Part shown: piece by piece, positions 15,303-48,802 of the stretch
How positions within the stretch are numbered: the first letter of the stretch is position 1
How the letters are laid out: each line of letters opens with the position of its first letter
Source: a virus
IMG/VR virus record: IMGVR_UViG_3300045974_000160
Span: 1-48,802 of that record
Length of the DNA: 48,802 nucleotides
Strand: one strand, 5' to 3'
Position numbers and translations under genes: made by a program
Notes under the pieces: model-generated
Told to the model about the DNA's origin: nothing
Database searches by the model: none
What the model saw: the letters and a program-made list of their open reading frames with translations, nothing else

Positions 15303-15378
15303 TGGAGCCAACAGCAGGACTCGAACCCGCTATCCCCGGATTATGAGTCCGGCGTCTTAACCATTTGACTATCCCGCA
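15303..15378 (-). tRNA. tRNA-like gene, anticodon CAU (Met or Ile2 class), encoded CCA, acceptor stem poorly paired
   Basis: Minus sense GCGGGAUAGUCAAAUGGUUAAGACGCCGGACUCAUAAUCCGGGGAUAGCGGGUUCGAGUCCUGCUGUUGGCUCCA. The D, anticodon (CCGGA/UCCGG, loop CUCAUAA) and T arms (GCGGG-UUCGAGU-CCUGC) fold. The 5' strand does not pair with UGUUGGC. Confidence 0.55.
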
Positions 15379-18442: not shown

Positions 18443-18609
<167 letters not shown>

Positions 18610-21171: not shown

Positions 21172-21282
21172 CTAATCGAGACTTTCGGTAGGGCAACCAC
21201 ATTTTGGGCATATCAAATCAGGAGCATGATGATAATGAGCAAACCAGCCACATTTTGGATTTACACATTTTATATATCCCAT
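21172..21282 (-). CDS. Small zinc-ribbon protein (36 aa)
   Basis: MGYIKCVNPKCGWFAHYHHAPDLICPKCGCPTESLD. Below the track cutoff. Confidence 0.4.
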   Translation of the reverse strand: MGYIKCVNPKCGWFAHYHHAPDLICPKCGCPTESLD

Positions 21283-21659
21283 TTTCTTACCTATTTAACG
21301 TTGTTGTTGTAAATCTATGGCCTAACAAACCGTTGGAGGGTACGCGGGCGATAAAGCCGCCCGCGTCCGTCAGCGGGGGCGTTAGGCCCGTTGTCGCAGG
21401 GCCATCGCGCCACTTGTAGGAGGTAGGTTTCCCCGTTGTCACTCAACGGCAAGTAACTATCAGCGGATGCTATTTCTTCATGGCGCTACCTCCAACAGAT
21501 CGCGCATCGTTATCAGCCATGCGCAGCGTTTGCAATAGATTGCCCGGTTTTTAACTGACCAGGCCTAACAAGTAAATCCATCGCACCGCCGGGATAATCC
21601 GGCTGTACTTCGGGTAGTTTTGATTGCTCGCCCGACGCTTATTATTGCTCATGTATAAA

Positions 21660-21863
21660 TTAAAACGGAAAATCTTCCTTGTACTCATCTATCAGTTTTC
21701 TGATAAAAGCCGACCTTCCTAATTCTCCGCGAATACTGTCCAGTTTATCGCGGTCATCCGTGGTCATATATATATTGACTCTAACGGATTCGGATTCTTC
21801 GGATAACCTGTTTCGGCCTTGGCCCTTCCTTGGGTTGTCATCTTTATGCGCTGAGGTAGGCAT
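21660..21863 (-). CDS. Ribbon-helix-helix (CopG/MobC-like) protein (67 aa)
   Basis: Basic N-terminus, then VRVNIYMTTDDRDKLDSIRGELGRSAFIRKLI (strand-helix-helix pattern). Paralogue of 22102-22299. Confidence 0.55.
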   Translation of the reverse strand: MPTSAHKDDNPRKGQGRNRLSEESESVRVNIYMTTDDRDKLDSIRGELGRSAFIRKLIDEYKEDFPF

Positions 21864-22029
21864 TTATGCACTTCCGTAAATGCAGTTTGTTAATATCAAT
21901 GTTTTTACTTAGTTTTTGCAATCCATCATCAGTTGGGCTAAATGAATACCCATTTATACGTACGTATTGTAGCCAATAATCTCGGCCTTCCTGGGTATGT
22001 TTTATTTGTTCGGTAGTCATTTCAGTCAT
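21844..22029 (-). CDS. Hypothetical protein (61 aa)
   Basis: ORF overlapping the start of the RHH gene. Confidence 0.5.
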   Translation of the reverse strand: MTEMTTEQIKHTQEGRDYWLQYVRINGYSFSPTDDGLQKLSKNIDINKLHLRKCINAYLSA

Positions 22030-22101: not shown

Positions 22102-22299
22102 TCAAAAAGGCGCATCTATCAAGTCGTCAGGGTCTACAGCATTGTCTATCTGTTCCCTCAAAAACCTTGCCCCGCCAATCCTAGTAAGTTTGGCTTGTTG
22201 CTCATAAGTAAGTCTGAAAGATACTTTTGGCGATTCTCCTTCATCGCTTAAAGGGGGACGGCCTTTGATTTTACTTTGATTATTTTCATTTTTTTTCAT
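22102..22299 (-). CDS. Ribbon-helix-helix (CopG/MobC-like) protein (65 aa from ATG 22299)
   Basis: KGRPPLSDEGESPKVSFRLTYEQQAKLTRIGGARFLREQI. Shares the C-terminal D-PF ending with 21660-21863. Confidence 0.6.
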   Translation of the reverse strand: MKKNENNQSKIKGRPPLSDEGESPKVSFRLTYEQQAKLTRIGGARFLREQIDNAVDPDDLIDAPF

Positions 22300-22300
22300 A

Positions 22301-22474
22301 TCAATCAATTCTAATCGAATTCTTTTTTAAATGTTTTCCGTTTCTTATGGTTTTGCATGTATATCTTGCGCCATCTTTGATATGAAAATACGCATATCCT
22401 CCGCTTACTTCGTCTATAAAAATAAACTCGTTTGGAATATTAAGATATTCGGCTATTTCATAAATTAGCTCCAT
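22301..22474 (-). CDS. Hypothetical protein (57 aa), first gene downstream of the repeat array
   Basis: GGAG Shine-Dalgarno. MELIYEIAEYLNIPNEFIFIDEVSGGYAYFHIKDGARYTCKTIRNGKHLKKNSIRID. Confidence 0.5.
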   Translation of the reverse strand: MELIYEIAEYLNIPNEFIFIDEVSGGYAYFHIKDGARYTCKTIRNGKHLKKNSIRID

Positions 22475-22512
22475 TTTAATCTCCTGTTGCGTATGCGTTT
22501 TGAAGTTGGCTT

Positions 22513-22541
22513 ATTGTCGGACAAAAACATCTTGGCGTCAA
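22513..22541 (-). promoter_or_regulatory. Sigma70-like promoter TTGACG-17-GACAAT overlapping repeat site 1
   Basis: Minus sense. The -35 is at 22541-22536 and the -10 at 22518-22513, inside the TTGTCSGACAA site. Confidence 0.4.
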
Positions 22542-22970
22542 GCTTTTTGTCCGACTTTATTCAAAAAACCGCTTTTTTTGTCGGACAGAAATCATGTTTT
22601 TGTCGGACATTATTGAAAATTCAAGCCTTTTTGTCCGACTAAAATAGCAATTTTGTCGGACTTTAATCTTAATTTTGCTGATTTTGTCGGACAATAAGAG
22701 TAATTTTGTCGGACTTTAACATGAATTTTACGCTTATTGTCGGACTTTATCAGCGAAAAAGTTTGTTTTTGTCGGACAAAATGACTTGAAAACGCTGTTT
22801 TTGTCGGACAATATCAGCCAAAAACCGTAATATTGTCCGACAATATTAAATAAATCACGCTATTTTGTCGGACAATATTGCACTCTGAGCGTGTTTTTGT
22901 CCGACAAAATTAGCATTCTGATTTAGTTTTGTCGGACAATATTGTAAATCACTGCGTAGTTTTGTCGGAC
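22514..22970. repeat. Array of 16 TTGTCSGAC sites (consensus near-palindrome TTTTGTCSGACAAWA), iteron/operator/centromere-like
   Basis: Sites start at 22514, 22547, 22578, 22600, 22631, 22653, 22684, 22706, 22737, 22769, 22801, 22833, 22865, 22897, 22929 and 22962. Confidence 0.9.
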
Positions 22971-23290
22971 AAAATCAACTCATCGCACACGATTAACACA
23001 AGCCGCCCATGGGCGTTGATCGCCTCATCGATTTTGCATTGCTGCGTGTCGTCGTCATCGTCCACGTAAACGCTCACAGAGTCAATTCTGAGCCTCTTTA
23101 GCGCGTCAGCTAGGACAACCTGTGCAGGCAAGTCCGCCACGACCGCTAGCGCCTTCCTGAGCGGATTTTCAGCCACTACCGCGCTAAGCGCTTGCGCAAT
23201 TCTGGCTGACCCATCATCAATCAACGAAAGTTCCCGAATTTTGTACCCCTCCTCGTTGATCTCCTCAAAATTATAAATTCGTGCCAACAT
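22949..23290 (-). CDS. Hypothetical acidic protein (113 aa)
   Basis: ORF only. Its last codons contain repeat site 16. Confidence 0.55.
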   Translation of the reverse strand: MLARIYNFEEINEEGYKIRELSLIDDGSARIAQALSAVVAENPLRKALAVVADLPAQVVLADALKRLRIDSVSVYVDDDDDTQQCKIDEAINAHGRLVLIVCDELILSDKTTQ

Positions 23291-23326
23291 CTGTAAAACC
23301 TCGCAAGTTATTGATTGTTACTTAAA

Positions 23327-23364
23327 GTTTCGACTCGACACTAAAAACCGTATCGAGTCGAAAC
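23327..23364. promoter_or_regulatory. Perfect 12-bp inverted repeat gtttcgactcga-N14-tcgagtcgaaac
   Basis: Read directly. Intergenic. Confidence 0.6.
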
Positions 23365-23393
23365 TATTGTGGATTATTCCGTTATCTTAAAAA

Positions 23394-24070: not shown

Positions 24071-26731
24071 TCATGCTTTTACGACTCGCCACAAGATGAC
24101 TTTTGTGTCTGGATTTATCCCTGATTTTTCGATCTTAAGCCCTGATTCAACACGATTTTCATATTTTTTAAGCCATTTCCCAAGCCGTTTTGGCTCTATG
24201 ACTTCCGGGTTTCGGCTTGACGCCGCCACTTCCAATACTGCCGATTTTAAATCAGCATGAACTGATAAAACGCACTCCGATACCACCTCGGCAACTGACC
24301 GCGAGTCGCTCCTAAATGATTGGTGCCAAAGCGTTATAACTGCCGATAATTCAGCCGAAACAGGGTCTGCCCGGTCTATGCGTTCGCGGGTTATATTTGG
24401 ATCAGGTTCGCCAAGCCATACTAGCGCGGATCGCACTAAATCGCTCCAATCTTCAAAGCTTCCGTATGGGCTAATAGGCTGTTTTGGCTTTCCCGCAACG
24501 TGGTATGCGCGTAGTATAGTCAAAGCCGCGCTAATCAGCAGATGTCGATTATCTGGAATCCACTCGCGGAGGTTTAATTTAAAGCTTAAAGCATCTGGCC
24601 TTTCGCATTTCGGATCAATCCGGCATAGTAAAGCCCTTCGCGTCATGTCACCTTGAAATACTAGATTGTTACCAGTCGCCAAAAAAGTTGAATTAGTTGG
24701 GAGATCAACATTTCGTGATTCACCTAATACTCTAGTCGTTTTATTTATTGATGCAAGCATAGTGCATATAAAATCGCCTTTAATCGGCCTTTCCACGTTG
24801 TCTATACATACCACTGGGGCGGATCGCATAAGCATTGCGCCAAGTCTTTTTTCATCCTCCGCTTCGTCCCATCCTTGCGAGATCATCGCCGCCGTTCGGC
24901 CTGTCGCTATAAGCGCTACCACGTCGGCCAATAGGCTTTTACCGCTTCCCGCCTTTGGCGCGTCAAAAGCGTGTAACGGGGCAGTATAAATAGACCGCCT
25001 AGATACTGCCGTCAATATTGCCGATAACACCACCGATAAATCTTCCGGCTCAGTAAAAGGAAACTCGCTTAGCGGTGTTTTGAGGTATTTAATTGCAGCC
25101 TTTGCATGGTTAAATGTCGGTTTTTCCAATACTTCTACTGGCTTTCCTTGATAGTCAACATATATCCCAGATAACTCGTCATATCCATGCTCTGTTATGA
25201 TTGTTCCGTCCCGTCTTATAGTTGGGCATTCTGATATACCTACTATGTGCTTAACTTTCCATTCTCCCACCATTGATAAATAAGTTTCTGAGACTTTTGA
25301 AGGGCAGTCTATGGTAACCCATTCCTTTTCTACTTTGCTAAACTTCTTATATACTGCCGTCCTTGTCATTTCCTTGCCTAGCCAATTATTGTCTACGCCA
25401 CCTAATACAACGGAGCCAATAGGTATTATTGATCCTTTCCCTTCGATTAAATTACTTAGTTTGTATGGCCTTACTAGCTCACCTTGCCTTTGATATATCT
25501 CAACTCCGTGGCTTATTAAAGCGGTTTCCGCTGCCGTGATTGTTTCCGGCAGTTGACCGCCAATTACTTTAATGACTGGCCTTCCTTCTTCATCATCATC
25601 CATATAATCCTGATAATCTATGCCCGGCATAGCAATGACGTTGCTCGGCGGGTCAACGGGAATTCCCGTAGACCTATCTTGCTCCGATAGTTTCGACTCA
25701 ACACCAATTGCCTTGTCAATCGCCGCATTCACCGCATCCGCCCCTTTCTCGGCCCATAAATCCCACATATCAGCCTTGCGCCCTATGTTCGGCACGGCGA
25801 CAAATCCGCCCACGGCCTGCGCTGCCGCGATGGCGAATGACATGCCGGGATTGCGTATGTCGCACGCGGGCAAATCGTCGGCGGTAGGCTCAGATGGATA
25901 GGGTTTTTGGTCATCATCGGCTAGGATAGTGATTACAGCCCCCGGCGCAGCCAGCTTGCGCACAATCCGCGCAACGGCTAAAAGCTGACCTGATGTCATG
26001 GCCGCGACGCACGGAATGTCTTTTGAGTCCGCCACCGCTTTAACCGTGGATATGCCCTCGCCTATGCCGACATGCGCCGCTCCGCGAAATTTTCCGAACG
26101 GGTGGAATTTTCCAGAGGGATCGCCCCCCGCGAGGAAATCTTTTTCGCCCTCGCCGTTAATCGCCTCGATAGTCCAAATCCTGCCATCCTCGCCGTACAT
26201 CGGCACTAGCAGGCAATCCGCATAGCCAGGCCATGCGGGTTTATTGCGCGTCGCTTTGGCCCTTTGGGGCCATTCCCCGCGTCGTATTAGTGGGCCGAGG
26301 TCTAGGCGCTTGCGGATTGCGTAGGGATGTTGAGCGGGATCAAGCTTGGACGCGTTGAGTATTGCCATCGCTTTAGCCGATGCCCTGTCAAACCCCGCTT
26401 TCCGCTCATCATCGCGGACTTTTTTCTCCGCTTCGCATTTTTTGCGGAATGCGGCTTTTTCGGCTTGGGTATATTTTTTACCCTCACGATTTAATTGCCA
26501 TACCCCATATAACCCTGTTGAATAATCCCCGTATATTCCACCTTCCATGTCATTGAATAGTTTGCACCATGCGGCGTCATCCGTGTCTTTTTTGTCCTTG
26601 CTTGGGAATCTTATTTTCTCCCCCGGCGTAATAGATTTAGGGGGATTTAACCCCGCATCCATCATCGCCGCCCTAAACTCATCAATGGCGTCGTAGGCAG
26701 GCCGTCCGGCGTTCCCGGTATTATTAGACAT
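24071..26731 (-). CDS. Bifunctional DNA primase / P-loop helicase (886 aa)
   Basis: Toprim-like GIGEGISTVKAV...ITILADDD. Walker A APKAGSGKS. Walker B-like VVCIDNVE. Confidence 0.75.
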   Translation of the reverse strand: MSNNTGNAGRPAYDAIDEFRAAMMDAGLNPPKSITPGEKIRFPSKDKKDTDDAAWCKLFNDMEGGIYGDYSTGLYGVWQLNREGKKYTQAEKAAFRKKCEAEKKVRDDERKAGFDRASAKAMAILNASKLDPAQHPYAIRKRLDLGPLIRRGEWPQRAKATRNKPAWPGYADCLLVPMYGEDGRIWTIEAINGEGEKDFLAGGDPSGKFHPFGKFRGAAHVGIGEGISTVKAVADSKDIPCVAAMTSGQLLAVARIVRKLAAPGAVITILADDDQKPYPSEPTADDLPACDIRNPGMSFAIAAAQAVGGFVAVPNIGRKADMWDLWAEKGADAVNAAIDKAIGVESKLSEQDRSTGIPVDPPSNVIAMPGIDYQDYMDDDEEGRPVIKVIGGQLPETITAAETALISHGVEIYQRQGELVRPYKLSNLIEGKGSIIPIGSVVLGGVDNNWLGKEMTRTAVYKKFSKVEKEWVTIDCPSKVSETYLSMVGEWKVKHIVGISECPTIRRDGTIITEHGYDELSGIYVDYQGKPVEVLEKPTFNHAKAAIKYLKTPLSEFPFTEPEDLSVVLSAILTAVSRRSIYTAPLHAFDAPKAGSGKSLLADVVALIATGRTAAMISQGWDEAEDEKRLGAMLMRSAPVVCIDNVERPIKGDFICTMLASINKTTRVLGESRNVDLPTNSTFLATGNNLVFQGDMTRRALLCRIDPKCERPDALSFKLNLREWIPDNRHLLISAALTILRAYHVAGKPKQPISPYGSFEDWSDLVRSALVWLGEPDPNITRERIDRADPVSAELSAVITLWHQSFRSDSRSVAEVVSECVLSVHADLKSAVLEVAASSRNPEVIEPKRLGKWLKKYENRVESGLKIEKSGINPDTKVILWRVVKA

Positions 26732-27544: not shown

Positions 27545-28051
27545 TTAATCCCTTATCAGGAATTCATCAATCGCATGGCCCTGCTCTAGTAGTGCGCTAA
27601 TCCAGCGTGGTTTTAGTCCACGGCCTGACCATGTGTTTTCTGGATTCGCAGGGTCACGGTATTTTGCGGGTAGATTATCGGCTTTTGGTTTTCTGCCAGC
27701 CCCGGATGATTCCGTTGCCGTATGCGTAGCCGTTGTTGCCGTGTTGATATTCAACGGCGGCAAACCAGCGGCAACCAAAATGGCGTTTTCCTGTTCGTGC
27801 GCAATGCGCTTGCGTTCAGCAATTGCGGCGCGGGCTTGTTCGCTGGCTGTTCTCAGGATTTCGCTGAATTCGACTTGGCCGAGTTATTCGATAAACCCTT
27901 GCACGGTGGCGATAATAAATTTTTTCCGCTTGTTTTTAATTGTTTCTGCGTATTCCTCAAACGCCGATTGATTGTCTTCGTCGCCGTCAATCACACTATG
28001 AATCGGGGTTGTTTCGTTTTCAATTGGATCAAGTTTTATTTTCTCATTCAT
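27545..28051 (-). pseudogene. H-NS-family DNA-binding protein reading frame interrupted by an in-frame TAA (27884-27886). The intact C-terminal ORF is 27545-27778.
   Basis: C-terminus AKYRDPANPENTWSGRGLKPRWISALLEQGHAIDEFLIRD matches the H-NS DNA-binding domain. The same frame is open from the ATG at 28051 except for codon 56, which is TAA. Confidence 0.7.
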
Positions 28052-28056
28052 GGTAT

Positions 28057-28281
28057 TCACTTTTTTGTTAATGTGCGATTTTGCACGGTTATTATGTATT
28101 CTTCAAATGCCTCTTGCCTAGCCTTTTCTACTAATTCATAGATGTATTCCCCTTCTAGTTTAATCGCAACACGTTCAGCAAATGCTGATCCATCGCCCTC
28201 AATCGGCTTTTGCAAGCCATGCGATTTAACCATCGCGTAAAATGCCCGAATGTCTTTTGTTAAGCTTGATGGTTCGGGCAT
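28057..28281 (-). CDS. Hypothetical protein (74 aa from ATG 28281)
   Basis: TAATG overlap with the upstream gene. Confidence 0.55.
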   Translation of the reverse strand: MPEPSSLTKDIRAFYAMVKSHGLQKPIEGDGSAFAERVAIKLEGEYIYELVEKARQEAFEEYIITVQNRTLTKK

Positions 28282-29726: not shown

Positions 29727-29759
29727 TTCCTCGCATTGAAACACAACGGGAGATTGAAG

Positions 29760-29909
29760 GTGTGCAAAATTAAAGACTCGCTCAATCAAGTAATTGAGCA
29801 AAATTCGCTTGAAATAAGCGAACAAATAGAGCAAATCATCGTAGACGCATGGATAGAACAAAATCCGATTTGCGATGAATTGAGCGATTACACTGACGTG
29901 CCATTTTAG
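29760..29909 (+). CDS. Small acidic protein (49 aa, GTG start), first rightward gene
   Basis: GGGAG Shine-Dalgarno 7 nt before the GTG. Confidence 0.4.
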   Translation: MCKIKDSLNQVIEQNSLEISEQIEQIIVDAWIEQNPICDELSDYTDVPF

Positions 29910-48279: not shown

Positions 48280-48716
48280 TCGCCCGCCTCGATAGCCGGA
48301 AAATACTTGCTTTGCGCCGGAACCGAACGCCCTGGAACATACCTCGCCATTCTAAATCGAGCCGACGCCTGCCAATATGCCGCGCCGTATTTTGTTTGAA
48401 TATACCACGCTTGTGAACCCGTAACCGGCCCCATGTCCGCAGATACTGTCACGCTGCCCTCTGTTGCCGAGTTAATGCGCCCGACTAGGCCGCTTGAAGG
48501 ATTGCCGTTTGTGCCGTAGTTCAATGCCGCAATATGCGCTGTAAGCATGTTAAGCAATAGCGCACGTTGCGACAAATCAATAACCGGGCTAGTATCTGTA
48601 TTATCAAGATACATTGTCGCTTCCGTGAAAAACTCTGCCGCCAAATCCGTATCAAGTTGATTGAATTCCGGGTATCTGGCAAAGAATTTGTTTACATCGA
48701 AAGCGACAATGCCCAC
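48267..48716 (-). CDS. Head-tail connector protein, DUF4054-like (149 aa)
   Basis: Position and N-terminal pattern. Confidence 0.5.
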
Positions 48717-48802
48717 GGCTTAATCCTTTTCGGTGGCCTTTACCACTCCGGAAGCGGGCTTGTCTTGGTCAACAGGCTCTAAACCGGTTTTGTTTTTGGC
48801 CC
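48676..48802. repeat. Terminal direct repeat, second copy of 1-127
   Basis: Identical sequence read directly. Confidence 0.9.

Follow-up and report, generated by a model that had tools for sequence, protein, structure and literature searches.

Arrays of short repeats that organise replication origins or centromeres are well known. In the present study, we analysed an array of this kind in a viral DNA of 48,802 nucleotides (IMG/VR record IMGVR_UViG_3300045974_000160, positions 1 to 48,802; hereafter the window), in which 16 copies of a 15-bp palindrome lie in helical phase next to an operon encoding two small paralogous proteins that resemble ribbon-helix-helix (RHH) proteins. The array is without sequence relatives in curated phage and plasmid collections. 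We regard it, with high confidence, as a dedicated and selected multi-site platform for a symmetric, sequence-specific protein, on which a single large complex is assembled along one face of curved DNA. As to its role, we tentatively favour an iteron-type replication origin or replisome-loading platform, which the adjacent RHH-like paralogs would bind and at whose first site they would repress their own operon.

Two kinds of described origin come close to this locus. The origin of phage lambda has four palindromic iterons inside the initiator gene, bound by O dimers about two turns apart on bent DNA that is wrapped into the O-some, with an AT-rich stretch alongside; the array likewise consists of phased palindromic sites on DNA predicted to be intrinsically curved, with an AT-rich stretch alongside. 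It differs in having 16 intergenic sites, no O- or P-like proteins, and a self-contained primase-helicase in place of P-mediated recruitment of host DnaB. In origins like that of the satellite phage P4 (ori and crr), iterons are read by the C-terminal winged helix of the helicase. The origins of staphylococcal pathogenicity islands (SaPI) contain 6-12 iterons immediately downstream of pri-rep (PMC9371898). With the SaPI and P4 origins the array has in common that short repeats stand in non-coding DNA 3' of a primase-helicase gene, are A/T-rich and lie near easily melted DNA. Here, however, the repeats are 16 palindromes of 15 bp, two to three turns apart, instead of direct iterons of 5-8 bp, no central AT-rich gap is present, and three genes stand between the helicase gene and the array.

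Among centromeres, the omega heptads of pSM19035 are odd-length sites centred on one base pair, as are the sites of the array. Like these heptads, parC-ParR of R1 and parH-ParG of TP228, the array lies upstream of an operon for small RHH-type (here RHH-like) proteins and overlaps its promoter, and binding in those systems organises a higher-order complex and auto-represses the operon, as we propose for this locus. Their sites, however, are contiguous or about one turn apart with touching dimers, whereas the centres here are 22-33 bp apart; here, moreover, no ParA or ParM motor is found, and the RHH fold is not demonstrated. The sopC centromere of plasmid F comprises 12 direct repeats of 43 bp, in each of which a SopB dimer binds a 16-bp inverted repeat (PMC3177203). 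Both sopC and the present array are tandem arrays with one palindromic dimer site per unit and a constant spacing near whole helical turns, and in both of them binding does not strictly depend on a high number of copies. They differ in that SopA and SopB (ParA and ParB) are missing here, in unit length (32 or 53 bp against 43 bp), in their unrelated sequences, and in the setting, which here is a phage replication module with the array abutting a promoter. What we did not find together in known systems is the whole combination, namely 16 palindromes two to three turns apart in two sub-arrays, no detected initiator or motor, candidate binders of less than 70 amino acids (aa) with tails like the tip of SSB (the protein that binds single-stranded DNA), and a motif that has outlasted a helicase swap.

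Sites, phasing and predicted curvature of the array

The 9-mer TTGTCSGAC stands 16 times on the plus strand of the array, with starts from 22514 to 22962 and with C as the central base S at sites 2, 5, 12 and 14. The spacings are 33, 31, 22, 31, 22, 31, 22 and 31 bp, then six times 32 bp and finally 33 bp; all starts and intervals listed in the initial annotation, which was made from the sequence alone, were reproduced. The array occupies one single stretch of the genome, about 460 bp long (also given as about 450 bp). Over both strands there are 26 matches, against 0.46 +/- 0.73 expected from dinucleotide shuffles, and the lone match outside the array (14979) lies within a coding region and is at chance level for a window of 48.8 kb. 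When the 11-mer TTGTCSGACAA was searched with one mismatch allowed, one extra outside match appeared (10775) and no second cluster of the motif was found in the whole genome. The features of the array are as follows.

22512 to 22976, no strand: the complete array, with the 15-bp odd palindrome T-W-TTGTC-S-GAC-WWW-A in 16 copies that share one orientation as judged by the flanks
22512 to 22541, minus strand: site 1, a full palindrome on the -10 of the promoter-like element TTGACG-17-GACAAT (22541 to 22513), proposed as auto-regulatory operator
22545 to 22751, no strand: sub-array A, made up of sites 2-9, most of which have a degenerate right flank (GACTTTA, TAAA, ATTA, AGAA), in 31/22-bp alternation (three 53-bp units)
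22767 to 22976, no strand: sub-array B, in which sites 10-16 are all full palindromes (TTTTGTCSGACAAWA, seven in number) set 32 bp apart (33 bp for the last), or about three helical turns
22264 to 22470, no strand: low-stability duplex abutting site 1, in overlap with the 57-aa gene and the first part of the 68-aa gene; candidate region for unwinding

In the position-count matrix, TTGTC and GAC show no variation among the 16 copies, each of which has a perfectly palindromic 7-bp core, GTCSGAC. A T at -2 and an A at +12, symmetric partners about the central S, are likewise present in every copy, and positions +9 to +13 are A or T throughout but for one G. The initial annotation had described a palindrome TTTTGTC-S-GACAAAA of which several copies keep only one arm. 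The palindrome stands, as an odd one of 15 bp, but the loss of an arm does not, the core and the outer T/A pair being kept in 16 of 16 copies; the supposed one-arm sites depart from symmetry only at +9/+10, where TT replaces AA.

The information content reaches 2 bits at 11 of the 15 motif positions and stays below 0.7 bit at spacer positions. Between the conserved 15-bp units run spacers of 7-18 bp, which are interrelated (mutually 60-80% alike) and which in sub-array A hold additional A/T tracts. Tandem Repeats Finder and a repeat finder recognised two types of unit, one of 32 bp (sites 9/10-16) and one of 53 bp (31 + 22), present three times (sites 3-9). An invariant motif among drifting spacers points to a protein-binding site under selection, laid over an old tandem duplication.

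The phasing of the sites is optimal at a period of 10.63 bp (R = 0.96), in accordance with the earlier claim that they lie on one helical face. With the spacings taken as independent, the probability of such phasing by chance is below 2e-4; since the spacings stem from about three independent classes (unit lengths of 22, 31 and 32 bp only), we use the conservative value of about 0.015. Furthermore, in the wedge model, with approximate parameters after Bolshoy et al. 1991, no other part of the genome is as curved over 120 bp or 200 bp as 22584-22790. The predicted ratio of end-to-end distance to contour length is 0.415 for the 200 bp that begin at 22584, the median for the genome being 0.92, and the maximum lies in sub-array A; the suggestion of a bent-DNA element is supported by this strongest predicted curvature of the genome. 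The A+T content is 65% in the array and 74% in its spacers, against 54% for the genome. Next to site 1, the coding stretch 22264-22470 ranks third to fifth among the least stable of the genome by nearest-neighbour free energy (windows of 50-450 bp). The palindromy of the sites and their helical phasing both support the idea, already put forward in the initial annotation, of a high-capacity binding platform for a dimeric protein.

Genome context and conservation

An exact direct terminal repeat of 127 bp (1-127 and 48676-48802) closes the window and, because of this overlap, the window is a complete genome, circular or circularly permuted, of about 48.7 kb. Genes were identified by scans with PHROGs, Pfam and NCBIfam, covering nearly all open reading frames (ORFs) of at least 110 aa. 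The structure and lysis genes are those of a myovirus (terminase, portal, protease, major head, sheath, baseplate, tape measure and endolysin), and the early region encodes RecT, a YqaJ-type exonuclease, RusA, a DUF3310 protein, a J-domain protein, an XRE-type helix-turn-helix (XRE-HTH) protein and a protein with an H-NS C-terminal domain. The sole replication-initiation-type enzyme of the genome, which the earlier reader had overlooked, is encoded on the strand of the operon, 1.1 kb upstream of the array.

24071 to 26731, minus strand: 886-aa primase-helicase, with a TOPRIM primase at about 70-345 and a helicase-like C-terminal half with a P-loop (GSGKS)

In line with the earlier statement that no ParA, ParM or TubZ-type NTPase and no Rep gene is present, the scans found no ParA, ParM, TubZ or classical Rep, and no ParB either, in the operon or in the rest of this complete genome, where they covered nearly all ORFs of 110 aa or more; nor was an integrase detected in it. 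The genome has no second non-coding array of iteron-like repeats, its one other sizeable repeat being a coding hexamer (GTCGGG, 24.5 copies, 18456-18602, plus strand) that yields long Gly-Val or Gly-Ser tracts in overlapping ORFs. With the primase-helicase 1.1 kb upstream, the array stands at the downstream end of a replication module, and an origin would thus be its most natural reading.

Two other loci of the genome deserve mention. At 15313-15372 (minus strand), the tRNA model of Rfam is matched over its positions 7-64 of 71 (46.5 bits), with the Met-like anticodon loop CTCATAA, and ARAGORN made no call there; its acceptor stem is unpaired, and it may be a tRNA fragment, a pseudo-tRNA or an attP-like remnant, though an integrase was not found. 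At 27545-28060 (minus strand), an in-frame stop breaks up an H-NS-like gene, with 58 codons before the stop and 113 codons after it that include the Histone_HNS C-terminal DNA-binding domain. This gene may be a pseudogene, be read through, or be split into two proteins; in the relative described below it is intact (157 aa).

No similar DNA was found with megablast or blastn among 50,697 GenBank phage records or 72,556 PLSDB plasmids, no similar array in the latter, and no relative of the primase-helicase or of the 113-aa protein encoded at the far end of the array in IMG/VR; the primase-helicase has only six distant relatives in the protein database. One syntenic relative was available, an ENA contig of 32,998 bp (ERZ1426815, 'Eh-K_O-7'), which was compared through its proteins and gene order. 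Its genes run primase-helicase, 64, 74 and 110 aa, then a gene-free gap of 477 bp (474 bp here), then 62 and 71 aa, and its 110-aa protein is 67% identical to the 113-aa protein here. The identical 110-aa gene is also found on a 530-bp contig from another sample (L296), which breaks inside the repeat, its final letters being ...TTTTTTCCGACAAAA-(spacer)-ATTGTC. The last codons of its ORF hold the first site, the second follows at a distance of 33 bp, and the spacer shares about 75% identity with that of the window. The array is kept in the relative in position, motif and spacing, and probably in length. The initial annotation had suggested looking for the array and its phasing in related phages, and the sole relative does keep the motif, the 33-bp spacing (two sites read) and the gap of about 475 bp.

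In the primase-helicase of the relative (P0002), residues 1-382 are 71% identical to the protein here, but the C-terminal half is an unrelated VapE-like module; the P-loop C-terminal half of the window's enzyme is common to P0003 and not to P0002. Since the motif is kept despite this swap of the helicase half, the C-terminus of the helicase is unlikely to be the reader of the sites.

Pattern scans of IMG/VR, GTDB genomes and metagenomes returned only unrelated loci, none of which shares proteins with the window. In some of these (L248, L006, L014/L023 and L149, from metagenome, IMG/VR and metagenome-assembled genome (MAG) contigs), TTGTCSGACAA forms clusters of 3-8 copies in A/T-rich intergenic DNA. 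Operator-like clusters of 3-4 copies in L248, L006 and L014/L023 adjoin genes for proteins of 133-149 aa with a C-terminal XRE-HTH, and in the MAG contig L149 four tandem direct repeats of 10-11 bp (TTGTCGGAC) stand directly upstream of a PriCT2-Toprim-DnaB gene. TTGTCSGACAA may be a widespread operator or origin motif which a different protein family reads. The other matches of the scans (GC-rich coding repeats, CRISPR-like arrays and the actinophage L126) are unrelated, and a literature search for the motif returned only primers.

The neighbouring operon and the candidate binders

The genes around the array follow on the minus strand in the order primase-helicase (26731-24071), 60 aa, 74 aa, 113 aa (23290-22949), array, and then 57, 68, 61 and 67 aa. 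The genes that flank the array most closely are listed here.

22949 to 23290, minus strand: 113-aa acidic protein (pI 4.4), with site 16 in its last 8 codons
22301 to 22474, minus strand: 57-aa ORF, first gene past the array, no family match
22102 to 22308, minus strand: 68-aa RHH-like protein (65 aa in the JGI gene call), leading candidate for the array binder
21844 to 22029, minus strand: 61-aa ORF, no family match
21660 to 21863, minus strand: 67-aa protein, paralogous to that of 68 aa and ending in ...DEYKEDFPF

The position of site 16 in the last 8 codons of the 113-aa ORF agrees with its earlier description, and no family match for the 57-aa or 61-aa ORF came from the Pfam, PHROGs and NCBIfam scans. 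Downstream of the promoter-like element at site 1 come an AGGAG ribosome-binding site and the ATG at 22474. The sequence TTGACG-17-GACAAT and the overlap of site 1 with its -10 are as initially described, but its standing as a promoter is not above chance: 8 promoter-like matches occur near the array, against 6.0 +/- 2.3 expected, and this one is a consensus match only. No terminator was predicted on the minus strand between the 113-aa gene and the operon.

Several features were observed on either side of these genes. Between the 74-aa and 113-aa genes (23320-23365) lies a perfect inverted repeat of 12 bp (GTTTCGACTCGA...TCGAGTCGAAAC), which was not called a terminator; its counterpart in the relative has two changes in one arm, with the pairing broken. 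On the other side, 3' of the second RHH-like gene, a GC-rich and apparently non-coding stretch (21300-21560, minus strand) folds at -96 kcal/mol (z = -3.45, with 0 of 200 shuffles equal) and has no Rfam family, and after it comes a zinc-ribbon-like mini-ORF of 36 aa (about 21172-21282).

As to the binder, the 113-aa protein is an unlikely DNA binder. It has no match in Pfam, PHROGs, NCBIfam or PDB, Foldseek with its AlphaFold2 model (mean pLDDT 69) came back empty, and, being acidic and without a recognisable DNA-binding fold, it makes a poor candidate. The 68-aa and 67-aa proteins are most likely the best candidates, and both would bind the array. They are paralogous (37% identity, E = 3e-7). 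The 68-aa protein begins with an AT-hook-like KGRPP arm, followed by a putative beta-strand (KVSFRLT), two helices and a flexible tail (...DPDDLIDAPF); its AlphaFold2 model has helices at 35-44 and 46-57, an unstructured N-terminus and low pLDDT at both ends. An exhaustive HMMER search gathered 28 weak homologs with the pattern GRPPL..V.xRLT..Q..KL.RLGGa.W.R..ID.AkeP, and the GRP arm is conserved throughout this family of small proteins.

A basic arm, a short strand and two helices would fit a ribbon-helix-helix protein, and in such proteins a beta-ribbon with two-fold symmetry contacts one major groove and reads 6-8 bp there, at sites that may centre on a base pair. This footprint would match the invariant 7-bp GTCSGAC core, and the AT-hook-like GRP arm would account for obligatory A/T flanks that tolerate AAAA, TTTA and TAAA alike; A/T-only flanks round a GC-containing palindromic core match a reader made of a ribbon plus minor-groove arms. 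The initial annotation had the operon encode two paralogous RHH-like proteins. The paralogy holds, but the RHH fold is not established: Pfam RHH_1 matches the 67-aa protein only, and below threshold (E = 0.013, 15.8 bits against a cut-off of 20.5), RHH_7 and RHH_10 match two other members of the family weakly (E about 0.08), and hhalign of the paralogs against sequences of CopG, ParG and omega put the strand in the expected register at a non-significant probability (below 1%). Neither paralog has a sequence match in PDB, and Foldseek with a single-sequence model was empty.

The tails of the two paralogs attracted our attention. A C-terminal -PF occurs in 3 of 334 six-frame ORFs of at least 40 aa, each time after an acidic run, and the three are the 68-aa protein (...DPDDLIDAPF), the 67-aa protein (...DEYKEDFPF) and a 57-aa ORF at 29736-29909 on the plus strand (...DELSDYTDVPF), the first gene of the RecT/exonuclease operon. 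The acidic-PF tail is absent from about 30 other members of the RHH-like family. These tails, acidic-x-PF in the two paralogs, resemble the C-terminal tip of SSB, DDDIPF, which docks DnaG, chi and at least 17 other partners (PMC5872125, PMC3632105, PMC10018359), and a RecET-mining study reportedly takes the tail of the host SSB as a search constraint (PMC13490951). The likeness suggests that array-bound dimers might display SSB-like tails that recruit replication or recombination proteins. We may go further, on a speculative and rather unlikely footing, and imagine the array and its two RHH-like proteins as a new kind of origin or recombination-initiation device, in which about 32 flexible acidic-PF tails, displayed along one face of the curved duplex by small binders at the 16 phased sites, would imitate SSB-coated single-stranded DNA and recruit binders of the SSB tip, for instance host PriA, DnaG, chi or RecQ, or phage RecT and primase, to a defined place in the genome. 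Origin specificity would then sit in a swappable adaptor and not in the helicase, which would explain why the relative has swapped its helicase half with the repeats kept.

Possible roles of the array and what they would mean

In the tentatively favoured reading as an iteron-type origin, each 15-bp palindrome would bind one symmetric dimer, whose beta-ribbon would read GTCSGAC in the major groove with two GRP arms in the A/T flanks. The spacing of two or three turns on curved A/T-rich DNA would align the dimers on one face and allow them to wrap it into a single large nucleoprotein complex, and occupancy of site 1 would shut the operon's own promoter. The complex could serve as an iteron-type origin, an origin enhancer or a replisome-loading site, with unwinding in 22264-22470 and recruitment of the phage primase-helicase and/or host replication proteins. 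We favour an origin because this is the sole non-coding iteron-like array of a complete genome with its own primase-helicase and ends the replication module, and because the array is A/T-rich, predicted to be curved, and beside easily melted DNA, with a site 1 that could auto-regulate the operon as in iteron replicons.

A number of points weigh against this origin. A classical initiator or Rep family was not detected in the genome scans, no DnaA boxes were found between 21.5 and 24.2 kb, and the GC skew, which tracks transcription, carries no origin signal. Sixteen sites over 450 bp are large for an origin; there is no central AT-rich gap with opposed iterons, and the low-stability stretch is coding. 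As to the binder, the RHH fold of the paralogs is unproven (Pfam, hhalign and Foldseek, as given above), and a word-based search with the 68-aa protein found no ortholog in the relative. No non-coding array was seen near family members in 15 of 15 other loci examined, so binding to an array is no trait of the family, and the presence of TTGTCSGACAA beside XRE-HTH genes in unrelated metagenome loci makes an HTH reader chemically possible; homologs of the proteins of those loci were not found in the window. The initial annotation had left centromere, origin, regulatory sink and bent DNA side by side. A canonical centromere is now disfavoured because no motor is present, the predicted curvature and the platform are retained, and origin and regulatory functions are not separated.

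The first alternative is a purely transcriptional one, an operator bank, roadblock, silencer or repressor sink worked by the RHH-like proteins or another phage or host factor, with no role in replication or segregation; it would shut off the operon, stop transcription entering from the primase operon, or buffer the level of free repressor. We hold this to be unlikely, although site 1 does cover a -10-like hexamer, and read-through from the primase operon must be handled, no minus-strand terminator being predicted before the operon. It would also suit the unrelated loci, where 3-4 copies of the palindrome stand beside XRE-HTH genes like ordinary operators, and the other members of the RHH-like family, which sit in array-free operons as simple regulators would. 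Nevertheless, 16 phased sites on 450 bp of curved DNA exceed the need of any known auto-operator, 15 of the 16 lie upstream of the promoter, and a relative whose neighbouring proteins have diverged by about 30% still keeps the spacing and probably the length of the array.

Decidedly doubtful, in our judgement, is a centromere-like or genome-positioning site that works without a motor of its own, in which the RHH-like coat would form a segrosome-type complex, also auto-regulating, to be moved or anchored by the host or by an unrecognised factor, for example in a plasmid-prophage. The locus does have the look of a partition cassette, the array lying directly upstream of an operon for small RHH-like dimers and on its promoter, as in cassettes of types Ib, II and III, and it resembles sopC of F (PMC3177203); with no detectable integrase but an XRE-type regulator, a plasmid prophage is conceivable. 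What such a cassette has and this locus lacks is the NTPase motor gene: a repeat array on the promoter of a candidate-binder operon is present, but ParA, ParM, TubZ and ParB were not found among nearly all ORFs of at least 110 aa, and the first gene of the operon encodes only 57 aa. Additionally, there is no sign of lysogeny or plasmid maintenance, no like array occurs in the 72,556 PLSDB plasmids, and the RHH fold of the supposed coat is, as said, unproven.

An origin of the P4 alpha or SaPI Rep type, with the primase-helicase reading the repeats through a C-terminal winged helix and the RHH-like proteins as unrelated regulators, is improbable. It would suit the place of the array, on the strand of the primase-helicase gene and downstream of it, and it has a precedent in the SaPI Reps, which read iterons right after rep through a C-terminal winged-helix domain (PMC9371898), as well as a possible parallel in the tandem TTGTCGGAC repeats directly upstream of the PriCT2-Toprim-DnaB gene of L149. 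The motif, however, does not covary with the C-terminus of the helicase: the relative keeps motif and spacing though its helicase half was exchanged for the VapE-like module, and downstream of the helicase half that the phage L120 shares with the window, repeats of this kind are missing. The sites here are, moreover, 1.1 kb and three genes away from the helicase gene, and they share one orientation, with no central AT-rich gap between opposed iterons.

It is more improbable still that the array is structural, that is, curved A/T-rich DNA left by tandem duplication, either an H-NS-type nucleation or silencing site or neutral, with no dedicated partner; the strongest predicted curvature of the genome, the H-NS-like proteins encoded by this phage and its relative, and the duplication history visible in the 32-bp and 53-bp units speak for it, but 11 positions, including a G/C palindromic core that H-NS does not need, do not vary among the 16 copies although the spacers have decayed, which is the mark of a sequence-specific reader, the H-NS-like gene is here broken by an in-frame stop, and the motif is retained in the relative. 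The remaining candidates were rejected, namely a CRISPR array (unit of only 15 bp, related spacers of 7-18 bp, no cas genes), an RNA element (only chance matches of miRNA type in Rfam), a pac or cos site (small terminase gene 11 kb off) and a dispersed operator or 'stoperator' (no second cluster of the motif outside the array).

The phage represents a previously undescribed lineage of tailed phage. With its near-identical palindromes, a perfect 32-bp and a weakened 22/31-bp sub-array, built-in curvature and two candidate binders, the array offers a clean test object, suited to in-vitro reconstitution and to cryo-electron microscopy (cryo-EM) of a wrapped nucleoprotein complex. If functional, SSB-tip-like tails on binders of duplex DNA would be a new viral route into the SSB interaction hub, and they might give a compact tool for bringing RecT-type recombinases or parts of the replisome to a chosen DNA site. 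More broadly, if the array is an origin, it would define how replication starts in this lineage without a recognisable initiator, with the specificity residing in tiny adaptor proteins and not in the helicase.

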